This document shows positions 2,468 to 17,091 of a DNA stretch of 20,458 nucleotides, piece after piece; position 1 is the first letter of the stretch; each line of letters opens with the position of its first letter. Source of the DNA: an uncultured archaeon. Its GTDB lineage: Archaea > Asgardarchaeota > Thorarchaeia > Thorarchaeales > Thorarchaeaceae. The notes under the pieces are model-generated. The model saw only the letters and a program-made list of their open reading frames with translations, was not told the origin of the DNA and did not search any database. The DNA lies in assembly GCA_964590575.1 (NCBI GenBank), contig CAZPWM010000054.1, forward strand, positions 1-20,458, in the 5' to 3' direction. The position numbers were made by a program, and so were the translations under genes.

Positions 2468-3691
2468 TCATCCCTGAACTCCAAAACGTTCTTCCATTTC
2501 CTCAGAATAATCATTATTCCGAGTGTATCTAAAGGATACCATGAGAATGACAACTCCAATAGCAACAAGAATAATGGCTGCAATGAAACTGCCGCGATAT
2601 GCATTCGCATTTGAAAAGCCTTGGCCAATTAGAAGGTCTGCAACAGGTCCTGCTATCAAAGTCGCAGCAATCCCCCAGCTTAGGAAGAAGGTTGCGTTAT
2701 AATATGCGAATAATCTACCCCGGTATTCTTTTGGTGCCATCTTTGCAACAATCGAATAGCTTGATGATTGAATAACGACCGATGATGCTCCAATGAGGAA
2801 TGAAGCAAGCAGAGCCAACGTGAAACTAGGCGTGACAATAAGCCAGGAGATACCAAGTATAGCAAATATGATTCCAGACATCATCACCCTATTGTCATCA
2901 GACTTAGCAACTATCGATCCCAGAAGCAATCCAGCCACCATAGATGCAACACTCCCAATATTGCTGAACAGTGCGAGCTCTACTCCGGTAGCGCCAAAAC
3001 CCGTTGGATCCTCAAGGAAGAGGCTAGTTATTATGGCAATAGAGTTTCTCCCAAAATTAATGAATACCAAGGCGACAATGAATATCAAGTATCCAACGCG
3101 AAGCTGGTAGGGAAGCTCACTAAGAGCATAATTCTCTAAGATTTCATTGCTGTCAGATTTCTGTGGTTTTTCCTCCTTTCTTAAGCGGATAGAGAAATAG
3201 ACTATGAAGCTTGAAAATATCATTACAACTGCAGCAATATTGAAGATGCTACCATTTGCGAACCCTCCACGGTCATAAAGAAAACCTCCAAGAAAGGCAC
3301 CACCTATCCCTCCGAACCCTCCAATGATTGAGAACTGTCCCATTAGCTTCTTTCTCTCATCAATCTCAGTCAGTTCAGAAACCAAAGCGGACCATCCAAC
3401 ATTGGACATGCTCCAGAAAACTTCGATTCCTCCCAAGGCAAAGATAATGACATAACCTGCAACAATCAACTGGTTCATACCAAGAAAGAACATGTAACCA
3501 ATGACCATGAAGAAATGTCCAATTCCTGCAAGGAACTCTCCTAAAACTACGAACTCTGTTGGCTTTCGATATCTGTCTAGTAAGTTACCCCAGAGGAAGG
3601 ACTGAGTGAGTGCATTCGCGATCATTCCCACTGTGGCCATCAATGTTACCTCAGTTGTTGAGAGACCTAGTGATCTAAGATAGATAGACAA
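2468..3691 (-). CDS. MFS transporter; probable true start is TTG at 3793 with an in-frame TGA at 3760-3758 (possible pseudogene)
   Basis: Many TM helices; motif-A-like WGNLLDRYRK and APKEYRGRLFAYYN. The called ORF begins within TM1 and the same frame upstream reads EFTGLSTFQILTYFRRSIVYTFLSIYLR. Confidence 0.85.
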   Translation of the reverse strand: MSIYLRSLGLSTTEVTLMATVGMIANALTQSFLWGNLLDRYRKPTEFVVLGEFLAGIGHFFMVIGYMFFLGMNQLIVAGYVIIFALGGIEVFWSMSNVGWSALVSELTEIDERKKLMGQFSIIGGFGGIGGAFLGGFLYDRGGFANGSIFNIAAVVMIFSSFIVYFSIRLRKEEKPQKSDSNEILENYALSELPYQLRVGYLIFIVALVFINFGRNSIAIITSLFLEDPTGFGATGVELALFSNIGSVASMVAGLLLGSIVAKSDDNRVMMSGIIFAILGISWLIVTPSFTLALLASFLIGASSVVIQSSSYSIVAKMAPKEYRGRLFAYYNATFFLSWGIAATLIAGPVADLLIGQGFSNANAYRGSFIAAIILVAIGVVILMVSFRYTRNNDYSEEMEERFGVQG

Positions 3692-3837
3692 GAAGGTGTA
3701 TACTATGGACCTTCGAAAATATGTAAGAATTTGAAATGTAGAGAGTCCAGTGAATTCTCATCCTTTGAGCTTGGAATAACTGAGAAAACTCAAATTGGCT
3801 TTTCGCCACCAATGTCCATCTTAAATACCAATTGTTG

Positions 3838-5685
3838 CTACAATTGGTTGACTCTAGAATTTGGATACACTTTGTTCTGGTTGAACACCAAGCTCTTCAC
3901 AGTAACCGGAAAGACTTGCCCATCATGTAGAGGTGCTCCAATGTCTATCCAGTCCCCTTCCTCAAGAGACAACTCATCAAGACAAATGAGGTTGTGTTGA
4001 ATTGATGTTTCCTGACGAACCATGAGTCCTACCATTTTTCCGATATCACTTTCAAATAGCAAGATAATCATCTTCTTTGCGGAAACGGAGTGCGGGAGAG
4101 AGTCCTCGATGGCTTTAACGAATTCTTGCAGCCAGGTGTAAGAGCGGTAGAGTGAATCTTTGAAGTATAGAGCAACAAGATCCTTACCCTCTATCATATC
4201 GAATTTTGAGAAAGATTGCTGGACCTCTTTTTTAACGTAGTCAGGGCTGTAGTTCTCTTTGGTCACATTTACTGGGATCACGGGAATATTAGCAATTGGA
4301 AAGTCGATACTCTTGTCAAAGTAACAGGTAGATCCAGATACCGAGAGTGTGAATGCACCTGCACCAATAACTGTCGCTCGAATTTTGTTTTCGGGTTCGA
4401 TAATGGGTAATCCAAGTTTTTCAACAAGAGCACGAATTTCTTCTGCAAGATACTTTCCAATATCATTATAGCTCTGTTCACTACCATAATAGATCTCTGC
4501 GACCCCGCCTGAGAAGGAGAACTCGTCGATTGGAATGGTGAAATCCAGATCATCAGTCATCATGAGTTCCTTAGCGATAGGACTCTTTGCAGGACATCTC
4601 ATCACTTCGACTAAGGCTTTCGCAAATTCTCTAGCGATTGATTTTGCATCCTCCTCTGGGATAATATCCCCTAACTGGAATTTCATATCCAACTCTTTCA
4701 TAACGAAAGCGGCTGGTTCATCTATCCTCCAGATCTTGAAATCTTCATCGATCCCAAGTAGTCGACCACCAACATTGATGCAGGATGTACTCCGAACCAA
4801 TCCCTTTGAAGTGATAGCAAGATTACTGGTTCCTCCACCAATGTCCACATTCATAATGGTTCGTTGAGTTTCACGAGAGCGGTTTACAATACCACTTCCC
4901 ATTGCACCAAGAACTGACTCAAAGTTGGGTCCAGCCGCTGCGCTCACGAATTTTCCGGATTCGGAGGATAGCCGCTTGACAATTTCAGCAGCGTTTTGTT
5001 TCTTTGCTGTTTCACCAGTGACCACTACAGCACCAGAATCAACCATCTCGGGTGTGATGCCAGCCTTTTGATATTCATCTTTACAGAATTTTACAATCGC
5101 TTCAATATCAATTGTAAATCGATTGATTAGAGGTGTGAAGATAATCTCACTCTCGTAGATGATTTCACGGTCAATGAGCATGAATCGATTAGTCGGATTA
5201 AGAAAACTTCTCTCTCTACCAAGAGTAAGACACGAAAACACAAGGTGCGATGTTGATGAACCAATATCTATACCCACACTCAACATCTTGAGATGCTCGG
5301 AGCTGTCATACAATTGATATGTTCGGACCTTAGGCTCCGCGCGAGACTTAGATGATTCTAGCATTCTTGATTTCGCTTCTATTTTCCGCTTTTCCGCAGT
5401 TGAAAGAGCTGCATTAAGAATCGGAGTGACCATTCCCATTAATCTATCAAAACTCTCTCCAGGTGGAAGAACAGTGCTGAGTGCAGGTTTGAACTCCTTG
5501 ATGAGATGATGAAGTCTAGAGACCTCTGTGAGAGTTTCGGCTTCGTGCTGTTGTAATAGCGAATCGAAATGATGTGTGAAAGCATCTTCAAGATTAGCTA
5601 CATCAACACCCTTGTGTTCTTCGAGGAATTTACTCACAATTTCGATGATTTGCCATTTCAAGCGGTTAGGATCAACCTCAACCAT
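3838..5685 (-). CDS. eutA: EutA-like (ethanolamine ammonia-lyase reactivase family) ASKHA ATPase, copy 2, with N-terminal extension
   Basis: SVGIDIGSSTSHLVFS, TGETAKKQNA, FVSAAAGPNFES, NVDIGGGTSN, CINVGGRL, FSGGV, IRATVIGAG, CLDEL..GDWIDIGAPL..PVTVKSLVF. ATG 5685 follows a GGTGA SD; TTG 5691 overlapping the upstream stop is the alternative start. Confidence 0.88.
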   Translation of the reverse strand: MVEVDPNRLKWQIIEIVSKFLEEHKGVDVANLEDAFTHHFDSLLQQHEAETLTEVSRLHHLIKEFKPALSTVLPPGESFDRLMGMVTPILNAALSTAEKRKIEAKSRMLESSKSRAEPKVRTYQLYDSSEHLKMLSVGIDIGSSTSHLVFSCLTLGRERSFLNPTNRFMLIDREIIYESEIIFTPLINRFTIDIEAIVKFCKDEYQKAGITPEMVDSGAVVVTGETAKKQNAAEIVKRLSSESGKFVSAAAGPNFESVLGAMGSGIVNRSRETQRTIMNVDIGGGTSNLAITSKGLVRSTSCINVGGRLLGIDEDFKIWRIDEPAAFVMKELDMKFQLGDIIPEEDAKSIAREFAKALVEVMRCPAKSPIAKELMMTDDLDFTIPIDEFSFSGGVAEIYYGSEQSYNDIGKYLAEEIRALVEKLGLPIIEPENKIRATVIGAGAFTLSVSGSTCYFDKSIDFPIANIPVIPVNVTKENYSPDYVKKEVQQSFSKFDMIEGKDLVALYFKDSLYRSYTWLQEFVKAIEDSLPHSVSAKKMIILLFESDIGKMVGLMVRQETSIQHNLICLDELSLEEGDWIDIGAPLHDGQVFPVTVKSLVFNQNKVYPNSRVNQL

Positions 5686-5687
5686 TT

Positions 5688-7739
5688 TCAATCACCCTGT
5701 GAGTATTCCTTGTTTTCGTTAAACACCAGACTCTTCACAGTAACAGGGAAAGATTGAGTAGATTTGAGAGGTGCTCCAATGTCAATCCAGTCTCCTGCTT
5801 CAAGCTGCAACTCGTCAAGACAGAGGATATTGCTCTTTATTGCGGTCTCATCTCGTATTGTGAGTCCCAACCTCTTAGCAAAATCGTAGCCAAAGATCAG
5901 GATAATCAATCTCTTGTTGGCTACAGAATTAGGGAGTGCTTTTTCTAGTGACTTTGCAAATGGGGGAAGCCACTCGTCACCTATGTACTCCTTCGAGTAG
6001 GTTCTCTCTTTAAAGTAAAGAGCAACTATATCCTCACCCTCAACCATATCAAATGTTGTGAATGCTCTTTGGACTTCTTCCACTACCCTTTTTGGGGTAA
6101 ATTCTTCATCACCAAGATTGACAGGAAGAACTGGAATATTGCCTAGTGGAAAATCAATACTATCATCGAAGAATGTAGTTGATCCTGATACTGAAAGAGA
6201 GAAAGCCCCAGCACCAATGACTGTTGCTCGTATCTTGTTCGGAGGTTCAACTACAGGCAACTCGTGTTCTTCTATCAGAGCTTTCAGCTCCTCTGCAAGC
6301 ATCACTCCAATGTCATCAAAGGTTTCTTTGCTACCATAGAACAGCTCCCCAACTCCACCAGAGAAAGAGTAAGCATCTACAGGTATCGAGAAATCCAAGT
6401 CCTCAGTCATCATCAATTCTTTTGCAACTACGCTTTTCGTTGGGCCTTGCATCACTTCAAACAACGCTTTTGCATACCCGCGAGCAACAGTCCTAGCATC
6501 TGATTCAGAGATGATGTCATCGATTTGGTATTCCATACCTAGTTCATTCATGAGAAATTGCGTGGGTCCATCAATCCTCCAGATTTTGAAACCTTTATCA
6601 ATGCCAAGAAGACGACCACCGACGTTGATGCATGATGTGCTGAGGACCTGACCGTTGGATGCGATTGCTAAATTACTCGTTCCTCCTCCGATGTCAATGT
6701 GCAAGATTGATTTCTGACTACGGAGTGATTGATCGACAATCCCACTTCCCAATGCACTTAGAAGTGACTCAAGGTTAGGACCGGCGGCTGCACTGACGAA
6801 TTTCCCTGATTCAGAAGATAGACGCTTTGCTATCTCAGCGGCGTTCTGTTTCTTCGCGGTTTCTCCGGTAACTACGACAGCTCCAGTTTCAACCATATCA
6901 GGGGTTATTCCTGCCTTCTTGTACTCCTGTTTGCAAAAGTCTACGACGGCATCGATATCGATGGTATACCTATCAATCAGAGGAGTGAAGATAATTGAGC
7001 TCTCATAGATGATCTCACGGTTGACGAGATTGAAACGATTTGTTATATTGAAGAAACTGGTCTCTCGTTTTAGTGTGAGCCGTGAAAAGATGAGGTGGGA
7101 GGTGGATGATCCAATATCTATTCCAACACTTAGAACCTTCATGTATTCAACATTGTCTGCAGGTAGATGACCCATTAACATCTCGATCGGTTCGATTATT
7201 TCTTCATCCTCTTTGCCCTCAACTAAAGATTCTTTGTCCTTCTTGGAAATTCGGAGCTTCACCTCTTGCCCACAGTGTACTGGCAAAGGCTCTTCGCCGT
7301 CCGAGTTCAGAATCTGCATCTTCTTGTCGTAAGGGACATCAACTTCTTCGTTACAAACGCCACAATGGAAAGTAATGATGATTGACTGATCGCTCCCCGG
7401 CATCATTGGACCCGTTTTCTCCGAAGCTGGTTTCTTCTTTCGGCGATGAGCCCCTTCCCAAGGAGCTTTGAACATGAATAACATCATCGTGAGGAGCATA
7501 TCAAATTCCTCACATGGCTCTATTACGGACGACAATGTTGGTTTGAAAGAGGTAATGAGTTTGCGAAGCCCTTCGACTTCGGTGAGGGCCTTGAGTTCAT
7601 CCTCGCAGAGTATCTCTCCGTACTTCTGTTCAAATGAATTCGTTAGACTCTCTGCGTCTTCCGTGAAATGCTTCTCAAAGAAACCTTTGACGACTCCAAT
7701 GACACGATGCTTCATGTTGTCGACATTGTCTTCAATCAT
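5688..7739 (-). CDS. eutA: EutA-like ASKHA ATPase, copy 1, with N-terminal helical domain and CxxC...HC metal-binding insert
   Basis: Same complete EutA motif set as copy 2 from residue about 200 on. N-terminal 200 aa extra, including FHCGVC...PVHCGQ. Confidence 0.88.
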   Translation of the reverse strand: MIEDNVDNMKHRVIGVVKGFFEKHFTEDAESLTNSFEQKYGEILCEDELKALTEVEGLRKLITSFKPTLSSVIEPCEEFDMLLTMMLFMFKAPWEGAHRRKKKPASEKTGPMMPGSDQSIIITFHCGVCNEEVDVPYDKKMQILNSDGEEPLPVHCGQEVKLRISKKDKESLVEGKEDEEIIEPIEMLMGHLPADNVEYMKVLSVGIDIGSSTSHLIFSRLTLKRETSFFNITNRFNLVNREIIYESSIIFTPLIDRYTIDIDAVVDFCKQEYKKAGITPDMVETGAVVVTGETAKKQNAAEIAKRLSSESGKFVSAAAGPNLESLLSALGSGIVDQSLRSQKSILHIDIGGGTSNLAIASNGQVLSTSCINVGGRLLGIDKGFKIWRIDGPTQFLMNELGMEYQIDDIISESDARTVARGYAKALFEVMQGPTKSVVAKELMMTEDLDFSIPVDAYSFSGGVGELFYGSKETFDDIGVMLAEELKALIEEHELPVVEPPNKIRATVIGAGAFSLSVSGSTTFFDDSIDFPLGNIPVLPVNLGDEEFTPKRVVEEVQRAFTTFDMVEGEDIVALYFKERTYSKEYIGDEWLPPFAKSLEKALPNSVANKRLIILIFGYDFAKRLGLTIRDETAIKSNILCLDELQLEAGDWIDIGAPLKSTQSFPVTVKSLVFNENKEYSQGD

Positions 7740-7785
7740 GCTTGGTCATTCCTGAATGCCGTTATTAATTGGATGAAACTCAATT

Positions 7786-7834
7786 CATATTTAAACAATA
7801 TGTTTATATATTAAATAATACAATATTGTATTAT
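7786..7834. promoter_or_regulatory. Divergent promoter region with TATA-like boxes and palindromic operator(s)
   Basis: Very AT-rich. TTTATATA at 7803-7810 (+), TTTAAATA at 7795-7788 (-), perfect 20-bp palindrome ATAATACAAT|ATTGTATTAT at 7815-7834, and TAAACA-ata-TGTTTA at 7792-7806. Confidence 0.7.
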
Positions 7835-8192
7835 GCTAGGGAAGAAACAACGTCGAACACTCGCAGAGCGGGCAGAGTCAATCTTCAAATTCATAGATAT
7901 ACAACCTGAACCATTCCCAAAATCAGAGTTCCAACGGATTGGTCTCAATCCCTCCACAGCAGAGAGTTGGGTTCGCCTCATCGAATATATCCAAAGTCAA
8001 CCTATGATAAAAGTCACAAGAATGGGATCATCAACATATATTGAGAAAATCGAGAATAGATACCTGAGCATGATGAGGAGAAGAATTCTAAATCCAAAAT
8101 TGTCTTTGAAAGAGAGAAATGATGCTATGAGAGATTACATCAATGCTCTCATGACACTAGAAACAATAGAAGATGGGAGAATCAAGAAGTAA
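7833..8192 (+). CDS. Small basic protein, probable winged-HTH transcriptional regulator
   Basis: Helix, then FPKSEFQRIGLNPSTAESWVRLIEYIQ (HTH-like spacing), a beta-hairpin-like IKVTRMGSSTYIE and a C-terminal helix pair. Divergent from the eutA-like pair. Confidence 0.6.
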   Translation: MLGKKQRRTLAERAESIFKFIDIQPEPFPKSEFQRIGLNPSTAESWVRLIEYIQSQPMIKVTRMGSSTYIEKIENRYLSMMRRRILNPKLSLKERNDAMRDYINALMTLETIEDGRIKK

Positions 8193-12001: not shown

Positions 12002-14095
12002 TTAACAATTGGATGTGATGTAGACATACCAGCTGAAAGTTCCAGGCGTTGGATCCGAACAAACATATCCGAATCCGTATGCATGGTCGTTTATTGGATC
12101 ATCTAACTGTGGGTTGTTTAGAGGATCAGCTGATTTTGAGGCATAGAACACAGCAGCTTGGATATCACTGCCTTCTGTTTCCAGAGTGGCTCTGAACCAA
12201 GCCTGCACAATTGTGGTAGGTTGAAGAAGCGAAAGTCCTGTCATGTATAAGCCAAATTTACCGCCTCTCTCCTGAACATTATGACTTCCCGATGCAAAGG
12301 AGCAGACTTGATGGATGCCCTGGAGCGTTGGTGCCCATCTTGTGAACACATCATCACCATTCTTATTCTCCCATGCAAGCGGACTACACGCATCGAACAC
12401 AATAGTTTCAAGATCTCCATCACCTAGTCTCATATGAGGGATACTTAGCCAACCATCATCGTGTTGCGAGGTGAAGGTCACACCATCGGGATTCCCATGA
12501 TCCTGATAGTAGACAATGTCCACTGCATCAATCCATTCAGTGTCAGTTCCACTGAATTGAGCGTCCTTGAAATCTTCCTCCCAAGCTGACCATTCGCCCC
12601 AGTTGAACTCTCGATTAAATCCTCCAATTACGCCCATCCAATTGTAGAATCCCTCGATATTTTTCTCAGTGTTCCAGAGGGGATTATCAATGACAGACAT
12701 TCCGACCCACTCAATGCCTACCTCTTTGACACCGTCATCATAAGCACCAGAAGGTGCGCTAGGAGCGATTGTTCGGACACCAGAGCTATTGGTACTGGCA
12801 AATGTAACTGGGAGGAACATGAATGCCGAGAACATCATCAAAAGGAACAGAAGCACAAACCCACTGCGTCTTCTTCGGAGAACAAGAAGAGAAACTAAGA
12901 TAACCGCTACAGCTCCAACAGCAATAGTGAGTGTTGTATCCATAGCGAAATCGACTGATTCTATTGTAACAGCAATACAATCACTAGCTCCTCTGTTCTC
13001 TGCATCTCTGACCCTCACGGAGATAGCGTGGGGCACAGGATTGTCTTTCTTCAGTACTTCTGACAGTGATACAGTTGTGAAGGTTTTCGATGTGCTTAGA
13101 ACTCCATCAAAATCTGAGCCCCATTCATAGGTATATGGTGGAGTTCCGAATGAAACACTGCAATCAAAGGTAATGGATGTCCCGGGCATCATAGATATGC
13201 CACTTGATGGAGTCGTTATATGAACAACCGGATCGAAGAGGGTAGCATCAAAATAAATGATACTGTGAATTCCCGGTATCTCACCACTGTCATCCTCGAT
13301 AATCTCAATCTCCCAGACAGGATAGAGCAATTTTTTGTTTTCAGTATCATCATCATCCACGGTATACACAAGACGATGATCTACCACATTGTTTGTATTG
13401 ATTCCATGTGCTTCGAGGATTGATTCATATTCAATGAGAGAGGATCTTGCATATGCATCAGGCTTTGGTTCTCTCCACTTCCAATCGAATCCAATTATGC
13501 GGTCGTATGCACTTACTCCATCGCCAACTATGACTGAGATTTGCGCAGCTTCGCCTGTTATTGGTAGATCATTATAGACGAATTCGTAGTTCACTTGATA
13601 CTGAAGAATCTTGACTCGCAATCTTCTGTCATCAAGATTGTATGCGGAAACATTGGTCGAGCCAATATTCGCTAAAGCTGCATTATCTGGAAGTAGTCCA
13701 TTATCATCCAACCATGACCATGCGATTTCACCACAAGTGCCCGGTGAGGGTAAATCATTACCCAACGCAACATTCCAGAGCTTGTCATAATCCCCATACC
13801 ATATCGAACCATCCCGAGAATCAACTTCGAAGGATCTGTTCCCTGAGTTTACAATATACCTGCCTTCCTCCTCCTCTGGCAAGACATCTGCAAGTCCAAA
13901 GAGATTACGAGCTAGGTCTTGCGTGTAACTCAAGTTCACTTGAGGAGTTGTCAGTTCGAATATTGGAATTTCAGTCTGAGACAAGACAAATTTCGAAGAA
14001 TCAAAAACATCGATGCTTATTGGTGATACTACTTCATCGGAAACTGAAACCACCAATAAAATCATCATTATCAATAGAACTGCATCCCGCTTCAT
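12002..14095 (-). CDS. Secreted/membrane multidomain protein: signal peptide, N-terminal domain, PKD/Ig-like domain, TM pair, DUF6345-like C-terminal domain
   Basis: Signal MKRDAVLLIMMILLVVSVS; PKD-like GTSITFDCSVSFGTPPYTYEWGSDFDGVLS...ISVRVRDAE; DUF6345-like WEEDFKD...DAVDIVYYQDHG...RLGDGDLETIVFDACS...W.P...GIHQV. Confidence 0.72.
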   Translation of the reverse strand: MKRDAVLLIMMILLVVSVSDEVVSPISIDVFDSSKFVLSQTEIPIFELTTPQVNLSYTQDLARNLFGLADVLPEEEEGRYIVNSGNRSFEVDSRDGSIWYGDYDKLWNVALGNDLPSPGTCGEIAWSWLDDNGLLPDNAALANIGSTNVSAYNLDDRRLRVKILQYQVNYEFVYNDLPITGEAAQISVIVGDGVSAYDRIIGFDWKWREPKPDAYARSSLIEYESILEAHGINTNNVVDHRLVYTVDDDDTENKKLLYPVWEIEIIEDDSGEIPGIHSIIYFDATLFDPVVHITTPSSGISMMPGTSITFDCSVSFGTPPYTYEWGSDFDGVLSTSKTFTTVSLSEVLKKDNPVPHAISVRVRDAENRGASDCIAVTIESVDFAMDTTLTIAVGAVAVILVSLLVLRRRRSGFVLLFLLMMFSAFMFLPVTFASTNSSGVRTIAPSAPSGAYDDGVKEVGIEWVGMSVIDNPLWNTEKNIEGFYNWMGVIGGFNREFNWGEWSAWEEDFKDAQFSGTDTEWIDAVDIVYYQDHGNPDGVTFTSQHDDGWLSIPHMRLGDGDLETIVFDACSPLAWENKNGDDVFTRWAPTLQGIHQVCSFASGSHNVQERGGKFGLYMTGLSLLQPTTIVQAWFRATLETEGSDIQAAVFYASKSADPLNNPQLDDPINDHAYGFGYVCSDPTPGTFSWYVYITSNC

Positions 14096-16380: not shown

Positions 16381-17091
16381 ATGAACCTTGATTCCCCAAG
16401 AAAACCTGAGAGTATTACTGAGTACATCAACGCCGCTCCCAAAGAGGTGCAAAAGAAATTACGCGAAATGCATGCCTGTCTTGGTAAAGCCGCACCTGGA
16501 GCAAAGGAAGGTATAGAGCGAGGCGTTCCCGCCTTTTCCTACAAAGGGGTACTATTCACATTTGCGGCAAGAAAAAATCATATCAGTTTTAATCCTACAC
16601 CAAGTGCTGTACGAGCATTTACAAAGGAACTGTCAAAATTTGAAACATCCAGTACAACAATTAGATTTCCGTTAGATAAACCACTTCCCTTAGATCTCAT
16701 TCGCAAGATTGCGGCCTTTCGCGTTCGAGATGCTAAAAACCATTGGCAGGTTCTGCGCAATTCAGAAGAGCACAAACAACTCGCGCTTAAAGCGGCAGAT
16801 AAGGCTGAGCAGGTTTTACAGATGTTCGAAGAGGAACATCCAACGGACAAACGTCCGCGAGAAGCGATAGAAGCACTTAGGGCTTGGGCGTGCGGAAAGA
16901 GAGAACTAGGTATGGTTGAGGTACGTAAGCTCTCACTGGACTCTCATGCGGCGGCTCGCGAGGCTAGGACGGATGCGGCGAGATTTGCCGCTCGCGCCGC
17001 AGGCCATGCCATCGCAACCTGGCATGTACCGAGTCATGCGCAGGGTGTTGAAGAATATGCGATAAAAGCTAGAAAAGCAGCAATGTCGTAA
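16381..17091 (+). CDS. DUF1801/YdhG-like domain fused to an Imm5-like (putative immunity) helical domain
   Basis: N-terminal ITEYINAAPKEVQKKL...APGAKEGI..GVPAFSY...HISF.P...TIRFPLDKPLPLDLIRKI; C-terminal LALKAADKAEQVL.MFE...DKRPREAIEA...HAAAREA..AARFAARAAGHAIATWHV..HA. Confidence 0.78.
   Translation: MNLDSPRKPESITEYINAAPKEVQKKLREMHACLGKAAPGAKEGIERGVPAFSYKGVLFTFAARKNHISFNPTPSAVRAFTKELSKFETSSTTIRFPLDKPLPLDLIRKIAAFRVRDAKNHWQVLRNSEEHKQLALKAADKAEQVLQMFEEEHPTDKRPREAIEALRAWACGKRELGMVEVRKLSLDSHAAAREARTDAARFAARAAGHAIATWHVPSHAQGVEEYAIKARKAAMS

Follow-up and report, generated by a model that had tools for sequence, protein, structure and literature searches.

What are two adjacent genes of the EutA family for, in an archaeon where we find no ethanolamine ammonia-lyase for them to reactivate? 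The question arises from a stretch of 20,458 nucleotides (nt) of a Thorarchaeota (Asgard) genome, positions 1 to 20,458 of contig CAZPWM010000054.1, which we call the window; the genome to which it belongs amounts to 3.40 Mb in 194 contigs and is 91% complete. On the reverse strand of the window lie copy 1, which encodes a predicted long-form EutA-like ASKHA ATPase of 683 amino acids (aa; 5688-7739), and copy 2, its long-form paralogue of 617 aa (3838-5691). A small gene of 119 aa (7833-8192, forward strand) diverges from copy 1, and a transporter gene of the major facilitator superfamily (MFS; 407 aa, 2468-3691, reverse strand; PF07690/MFS_1, 113 bits) follows copy 2 after 146 nt on the same strand. 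A sequence-only reading of this DNA had singled out the pair as a candidate undescribed system serving a client other than the lyase. Our best explanation, to which we give a little less than an even chance, is that the locus is a Thorarchaeota-specific tandem duplicate of a long EutA ATPase restricted to Asgard archaea, which would carry out ATP-driven remodelling or cofactor exchange for a non-lyase client, with its N-terminal module as a specificity element.

The layout first described, an adjacent and tightly coupled EutA-family pair with an MFS gene downstream and a divergent gene upstream, agrees with the open reading frames (ORFs) and with the profile scores given below. With the TTG at 5691 as the start of copy 2, the two copies overlap by 4 nt; with the ATG at 5685, a gap of 2 nt separates them. 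Both the junction between them and the spacer between copy 1 and the small gene are bridged by Logan contigs of two runs, which may include the window's own sample.

EutA family membership and the search for a lyase

Membership in the family is clear for both copies. The Pfam profile EutA (PF06277, Actin_ATPase clan; length 475, cut-off 27 bits) is covered over positions 2-475 by copy 1 with 440 bits (aa 201-674) and by copy 2 with 463 bits (aa 135-604); in copy 1, the domain so delimited (5718-7139, reverse strand) comprises the ASKHA core and a C-terminal domain, in line with the fold matches reported below. The ASKHA motifs DIGSST, DIGGGT, and SGG, previously said to be intact, are indeed seen in both translations. 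An alignment of 113 family sequences has 22 invariant columns, DxG and GGG among them, and both copies conform to every one.

Belonging to the family is not the same as being the reactivase. The only role characterised in the family, as set out in PMC5821096, is cofactor exchange on an adenosylcobalamin (AdoCbl) enzyme, namely the reactivation of ethanolamine ammonia-lyase. NCBIfam provides four equivalog models for EutA (NF007991-NF007994) with cut-offs of 598-952 bits, and none of them is reached by copy 1 (383.5 bits), copy 2 (410.2 bits), or a third, short copy of the same genome (417 bits). Profile searches of the window's own genome returned no match for EutB, EutC, or the bacterial microcompartment (BMC) shell proteins. 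Among 301 Asgard genomes, an even sample of the phylum, a EutA-family match occurs in 154 and EutB in none. The check for eutBC elsewhere in the genome, on which the proposal of another client depended, thus returned nothing to revive the link with the lyase. That the pair does not serve the lyase is supported by three results together: the empty searches in the own genome, the absence of EutB from the sample, and scores below the equivalog level. Comparison at the sequence level supports the view that both copies are EutA-family members and not equivalogs of the ethanolamine ammonia-lyase reactivase.

One has to keep in mind how much the long forms share with EutA and where they part from it. 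A full-length, high-scoring EutA domain with intact nucleotide motifs is common to both, and it is natural to suppose that the Asgard long forms, too, may act on a bound partner at the expense of ATP. They differ from EutA, apart from the scores and the missing eutBC, by an N-terminal module of 130-200 aa that ordinary EutA lacks, and by their pairing with a small putative regulator instead of a place inside a eut operon. The relationship and neighbourhood analyses that had been suggested for this family lead to the same point: the long forms make up a clade whose named members are all from Asgard archaea, set apart from the EutA of eut operons.

The pair had also been called an orphan. This holds as far as eut genes are concerned, since a Pfam scan of 18 ORFs of the window found no match to any eut or shell-protein family, but not for the EutA family itself: the pair is not the genome's only EutA complement, because a third family gene of 484 aa lies on another contig (G000:C37:18608-20062, fetched as L004:8609-10063) beside nitroreductase, ACT, and PNPOx-like genes, which are also the neighbours of the short copies in Thorarchaeota. 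Short Asgard forms such as this one (about 480 aa) are the nearest relatives of the long forms in the tree described below, with 41-46% identity, and are likewise without eutBC; they differ in having neither the N-terminal module nor a paired small gene, in their other neighbourhoods, and in being far more widespread. In the family that we label f5 (the taxonomic families are given numbers, f1 being Thorarchaeota), the orthologous short copy has a gamma-glutamyltranspeptidase gene on one side and a 329-aa gene on the other, after which come genes for an ABC transporter and a SBP_bac_5 peptide-binding protein. Such neighbours suggest that the role of the short branch is a non-B12 one, maybe gamma-glutamyl-linked.

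The long-form architecture and the origin of the second copy

The feature that defines the long forms is their front end. In an alignment of 23 N-termini (20 of copy 1 type and 3 of copy 2 type), the elements follow one another in a constant order: a helical domain, a GPxxPGS motif, a CxxC...LPxH[C/H] segment, an acidic linker, and LLMGH. The helical domain of copy 1 (aa 1-102, of four to five helices; 7434-7739, reverse strand), delimited from the predicted model and the alignment, is conserved in all the aligned sequences, copy 2 included, and holds the conserved stretch RLIxxFKPALSSVLxPGEEFD. GPxxPGS occupies aa 110-116 of copy 1, ahead of a segment resembling a metal ribbon (aa 118-166; 7242-7388, reverse strand), the putative ligands of which are C126, C129, H155, and C156. 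The first three are invariant in the 20 copy-1-type sequences, and position 156 is C in 13 of them and H in 7; such a CxxC...H[C/H] pattern may form a metal site. Copy 2 keeps the helical domain and is without the ribbon segment, the corresponding columns being gapped. The two copies are 67% identical over the EutA domain, a figure that falls to 36% over the N-domain (about 100 residues).

The AlphaFold2 model of copy 1, built on a 113-row alignment, reached a predicted local distance difference test (pLDDT) of 89.0 and a predicted template modelling score (pTM) of 0.80. Its N-terminal helices (5-24, 29-44, 46-51, 54-72, and 77-102) have a pLDDT above 90; aa 120-166 contribute two strands (120-125 and 161-166) and one helix, after which come the ASKHA core and the C-terminal domain. 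Compared as a whole with known structures (Foldseek and VIA, best 50 rows), the model matched Ppx/GppA at Z 15.6 and FtsA, PilM, MreB, AnmK, and HgdC-type activators at Z of about 12-13, so that the ASKHA fold of copy 1 is confirmed at the level of a predicted model.

The N-terminal module found no such relatives. Modelled alone (aa 1-195, pLDDT 79.9), it had no Foldseek match in the PDB at an E-value of 0.001 or better, and a VIA-wide fold search gave at best Z 8.3 (helical segments of dynein and Cascade) and about 6 on cyclin/TFIIB folds, that is to say helical-bundle noise. Nor was there a match in Pfam, in NCBIfam, or, of a usable kind, in the protein atlas; no second copy of the module exists elsewhere in the own genome, and a search for stand-alone homologues among shorter proteins yielded four fragments only. 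A search of 1.84 billion representative proteins with copy 1 yields 2253 matches at an E-value of 0.001 or less, and only about ten clusters cover its N-terminal part; all the long-form proteins with a named source, those clusters included, are from Asgard archaea. Among the 120 best relatives of copy 1, most measure 660-710 aa (about a dozen are shorter or partial); they share 56-83% identity with it and come, where named, from Thor-, Loki-, Hod-, Heimdall-, and Promethearchaeota. For full-length relatives in Asgard genomes generally, the range is 54-83%. As far as sequence and predicted fold can tell, the long form with its helical domain, GPxxPGS, and ribbon-like segment is an Asgard-restricted architecture, for the N-terminal module of which we found no relative by either route.

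To place the two copies, we built a quick tree with IQ-TREE (LG+G4) from 73 EutA domains. It draws 24 long forms from 21 loci and adds 15 short forms of Asgard archaea and 34 of 150 listed representatives; copy 2 of locus L038 and the truncated copy 2 of L052 are left out of it. The long forms are monophyletic (SH-like approximate likelihood ratio test, SH-aLRT, 100; stem 0.45) and are placed beside the Asgard short forms, and the grouping within them tracks taxonomic families. Copy 2 forms a clade of its own (SH-aLRT 99), nested within the Thorarchaeota long clade (97) and sister to Thorarchaeota copy 1 (82), which points to a duplication at the base of that family. On this phylogeny, the architecture of copy 1 is the one ancestral to the Asgard long clade, and copy 2 is a Thorarchaeota-specific duplicate.

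The distribution of copy 2 bears on the idea of a heteromer, raised when the pair was first described. By a hand tally among the matches listed, 14 of the roughly 25 Thorarchaeota genomes with a long form also have copy 2; the gene is intact in L038, cut to 161 aa in L052, and missing from L037, L039, and L056, all of which are fully covered. Most lineages have one long gene only. Since copy 2 is absent or truncated in several genomes of its own family, it is dispensable, and an obligate heteromer is unlikely; the pair is real in this genome but it is not ancestral. In same-genus genomes without the pair, the region is rearranged, with no clean insertion or deletion boundary. As a separate observation, one Thorarchaeota genome carries between copies 1 and 2, on the same strand, a gene for a 434-aa protein of the leucine carboxyl methyltransferase family (L050:9767-11071, in G167:C40; PF04072, E 1.9e-36).

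The small divergent gene and its palindrome

The partner that the long gene does keep is the small one. We built a profile of the small family from 11 sequences of several families, in which 28 columns are invariant, and found it in 78 of the 301 genomes. A small gene adjoins the start of the long gene, within a few hundred bases, in 33 of 42 loci of copy 1 type and in 10 of 11 of f5 type, hence about 43 of the 53 assessable loci (a hand tally among the matches listed; three further loci end at contig ends). This pairing spans families f1, f5, f9, f14, f22, f24, and f27, and the two genes are divergent in all the paired loci but one (G139, where they are co-oriented).

Paralogues of the small protein are informative as to its function. 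In f22, they diverge from an ATC_hydrolase-HEAT gene that is followed by a 930-aa NTP_transf/Metallophos gene (L057:6128-8597, L061:5738-8170, L063, and L064); in f1, they lie downstream of a PolX-PHP polymerase gene and are co-oriented with it (L059:8159-10384, L060, and L062). Since it is unrelated genes that the paralogues pair with, the likeliest role for the small protein is that of a local transcription factor; it probably binds DNA and represents a family of small Asgard proteins that has not been described. The divergent HTH-like (helix-turn-helix) regulator proposed earlier thus fits the pairing, the palindrome, and the paralogue pattern, but not by way of a curated HTH family: the 11 members searched have no Pfam HTH match except one to WH_KIN17 at E 0.096. 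Atlas leads for the 119-aa protein point to MarR/winged-helix clusters with a score of 0.83, which is below the counting level. A complex prediction of copy 1 with the 119-aa protein, run without controls, scored 0.00, which speaks neither for nor against contact between them.

Between the two genes lies a putative divergent promoter region (7740-7832), read directly from the sequence, in which AT-rich boxes stand back-to-back: the TATA-like TTTATATA on the side of the small gene (7803-7810, forward strand) and the TATA-like TTTAAATA on the side of copy 1 (7795-7788, reverse strand), 48 nt before the ATG of copy 1. Back-to-back AT boxes are also present in the other Thorarchaeota spacers, and the region would act as a promoter for both genes. 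A perfect palindrome of 20 nt, ATAATACAATATTGTATTAT (7815-7834; core TACA-N4-TGTA at 7819-7830), flanked by the small gene's TATA-like box on one side and the ATG (7833) on the other, is a putative operator. Around it, from 7700 to 7860, we found no direct repeats, and one palindrome together with two AT-rich inverted repeats.

The Thorarchaeota spacers share ATATGTTTATATATTAA-N-TAATACAATATTGTATT directly ahead of the start codon. More widely, we scanned for TAC[AG]-N4-6-[CT]GTA in the 170-nt stretch that precedes a conserved codon of the small gene, three further members being impossible to anchor in this way. The motif was matched in 15 of the 18 small-family members, among them those of f5, f27, and the paralogue loci, and always just before the start of the small gene; of the three misses, L038 has the motif in the spacer alignment, and L048 and L055 carry near variants. 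A search for the palindrome as a 14-mer with at most one mismatch gave 3 sites in the own genome, where the reversed control gave 1; five other Thorarchaeota genomes have 11 sites to the control's 1, and 6 of the 11 fall within 40 nt of a small-family gene. Of the palindromic sites noticed at first, then, the perfect 20-nt palindrome is present and conserved across loci, but it is statistically unremarkable in the window alone, as detailed further on.

Of the own genome's remaining sites, one precedes a topoisomerase-like gene and the other falls between genes of 138 and 182 aa next to HypF; neither is linked to the ATPase. The HypF-side site deserves a separate mention: a near-identical palindrome is kept in two genera (G000:C9:11806-11819, fetched as L083:1501-1514, and G227:C21:39996-40009, fetched as L099), upstream of the 182-aa gene, which has a weak DUF134 match, and a further small regulator may use this palindrome as its operator.

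What the long ATPase may do

How would such a locus work? The evolutionary unit would be two genes, the long ATPase and the divergent 119-aa putative DNA-binding protein. From the position of the palindrome, the small protein would bind TACA-N4-TGTA and repress its own gene, the transcript of which would be leaderless; as the palindrome lies just upstream of the ATPase promoter, the small protein would also control the ATPase gene. The actin-fold core would most likely couple ATP binding and hydrolysis to the remodelling of a protein client or, in the manner of EutA with its lyase, to the exchange of a bound cofactor, with the clade-specific N-terminal module as a docking or specificity element. 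Copy 2, having lost the ribbon, probably co-assembles with copy 1 or modulates it, yet is dispensable.

This working model has well-known precedents. In DdrAB and GdrAB, which reactivate diol and glycerol dehydratase, and in ASKHA chaperones of the Hsp70 type, an actin-fold ATPase remodels a client protein through its nucleotide cycle, and the long forms may share this mode of action. They differ from these systems in that no small beta-subunit-like partner was identified, and in their accessory domains, which are unrelated.

Several observations weigh against the explanation that we prefer. The long form is patchy: within the own genus, some 11 of 25 genomes have it among the matches listed, and the near-complete genomes G098 (97%) and G197 (99%) show, again among those matches, only the short copy; patchiness even within a genus argues for an accessory function. 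The long gene is mostly monocistronic, and the only neighbour kept across families is the small gene (14 of 21 loci); no client gene lies in the vicinity. The best 50 structural matches listed do not include the reactivases of diol and glycerol dehydratase, so the fold comparison adds no specific support for a reactivase-like mechanism. The pairing has its gaps: 10 of the 53 assessable long-form loci have no small gene, and a permissive hidden Markov model (HMM) scan of seven such fetched loci (f9, f14, f22, and f24) gave one weak match 2.4 kb away and none in the other six. The 119-aa protein has no match in Pfam, NCBIfam, PADLOC, or PDB sequences (best E-value in the PDB profile search, 0.34). 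As for the palindrome, it is not significant in the window alone, its core TACANNNNTGTA occurring once against 0.25 expected and at least once in 25 of 100 shuffles; the support for it comes from its conservation across loci and its rarity genome-wide, not from the statistics of the window. Lastly, nothing in these data decides between a protein client and a small-molecule substrate for the ATPase.

The strongest competitor, which we consider unlikely, is that the long EutA-like protein could itself be a small-molecule enzyme, for instance a kinase of ASKHA type or a hydrolase dependent on ATP, which with its regulator, and here the MFS protein, would make up an inducible unit for uptake, catabolism, or detoxification. 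A single gene under its own divergent regulator is a layout typical of catabolic and detoxification functions; the accessory, patchy distribution of the long form, the phosphatases and kinases among the fold matches (Ppx/GppA and AnmK), and the metabolic context of the f5 short copy, with its gamma-glutamyltranspeptidase and peptide ABC transporter, all go in the same direction, as does the MFS gene that follows on the same strand in the window. That gene, however, does not travel with the pair. When we clustered the ORFs of 21 loci with a long form, each some 20 kb in length, an MFS homologue was present in 3 of them, adjoining in this window only and several genes off in the other two; the "operon with downstream transporter" does not hold as a conserved unit, and by local synteny the MFS gene is probably a passenger and no part of the unit. 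To our knowledge, although no search was directed at this point, no member of the EutA family is a small-molecule enzyme, and a helical and ribbon module of 200 aa with very high conservation looks more like an element for binding a macromolecule.

We regard as improbable, and rank lower, a reactivase for another B12 enzyme encoded elsewhere, for instance methylmalonyl-CoA mutase or a B12-radical-SAM enzyme. The family's sole characterised role (PMC5821096) is cofactor exchange on an AdoCbl enzyme, and the own genome has 2 MM_CoA_mutase and 7 B12-binding-domain matches, all on other contigs. The two methylmalonyl-CoA mutase large subunits, several corrinoid-type B12-binding proteins, and RACE-type activators are located at G000:C55:5088-8101, C7:43162-44706, C93:4467-5210, and C24:27815-28549, so that cobalamin metabolism is present in the genome and unlinked to the EutA-like genes. 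No B12 gene lies in the window or beside any of the 21 long-form and 15 short-form loci examined, and the patchiness of the long form within a genus may also speak against such a role. The activation of methyltransferase corrinoid proteins would already be provided for by two RACE-type activators (RACo_C_ter matches). Their presence led us to reject, separately, the possibility that the EutA-like genes replace corrinoid activators.

Hardly more than a slim chance is left, in our opinion, to a cytomotive or cytoskeleton-linked protein, either the ATPase of a pair akin to ParM/ParR or a factor acting on Asgard actin. The fold belongs to the actin superfamily, with FtsA, MreB, and PilM at Z 12-13, and the seemingly obligate pairing of an actin-fold ATPase with a small, putatively DNA-binding protein, together with a palindrome in cis within the promoter region, resembles the parts list of ParM/ParR/parC. 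The differences from that system are several: the long and small genes are divergent and not co-oriented, there is one palindrome and no iterated array (nor any direct repeat in the spacer), the ATPase is of the EutA family and not ParM, and the locus is chromosomal with an inheritance that looks largely vertical. In addition, the small-protein paralogues pair with non-ATPase genes, which fits a regulator and not an adaptor.

A further lead to the actin machinery came from one Lokiarchaeial long form. This protein of 831 aa (P0125; L055:8794-11289, in G273:C138) bears a C-terminal extension of 141 aa (aa 691-831) that has no Pfam or PDB-sequence match. The one stand-alone homologue of the extension, P0293 (123 aa, E 5e-10), has sub-threshold matches to solved profilins (5zza, 0.0065; 1prq, 0.085; 6yrr, 0.12; 5yed, 0.13; 5zzb, 0.15) and a weak Roadblock match (E 0.13). 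The extension itself has no direct profilin match, it occurs in 1 of the 21 fetched long-form loci, and no homologue was found near the others or in the own genome; we consider it a weak lead, and for an actin-machine interpretation only. The boldest form of that interpretation, in which the long forms would be an Asgard-specific actin-superfamily machine and no cofactor chaperone, with the front end and the small partner acting on the archaeal cytoskeleton or DNA and able to polymerise or to remodel actin or chromatin, we consider equally improbable.

A few features of the surroundings are recorded here for their own sake. In two f9 loci without a small gene, a radical SAM gene is divergent from, or near, the long EutA-like gene (L040:11790-12938 and L041:13002-14150), and in the second of them a 354-aa TrmB-like protein with two 4Fe-4S motifs is encoded directly upstream (L041:11396-12460). 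Elsewhere in the window are three genes of unusual type, fusions or orphans: one for a GNAT acetyltransferase fused to an OB-fold (1671-2462), one for a 697-aa DUF6345 protein (12002-14095), and one for a DUF1801 and Imm-5-like protein (16381-17091). PADLOC returned no defence match for the six proteins tested.

In full-text searches of the literature, we found no account of these Asgard EutA-like proteins, EutA and Asgard occurring together only in a listing of actin-like families. The EutA family itself is known; what is new, as far as the literature shows, is the long architecture of Asgard archaea, with an N-terminal module that is both orphan and clade-defining, the dedicated small putative regulator with its candidate operator, and the uncoupling of the family from ethanolamine ammonia-lyase across the phylum. 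Asgard actin-fold ATPases bear on the origin of eukaryotic cell biology, and no eukaryotic link was found here. Hundreds of Asgard proteins are named "ethanolamine ammonia-lyase reactivating factor EutA" in public databases, and the lyase is present in no Asgard genome that we sampled; the name is thus misleading for this strongly conserved ATPase. With a regulator whose operator would be readable in the sequence, the long ATPase and its small partner may offer a compact two-gene system open to direct testing.

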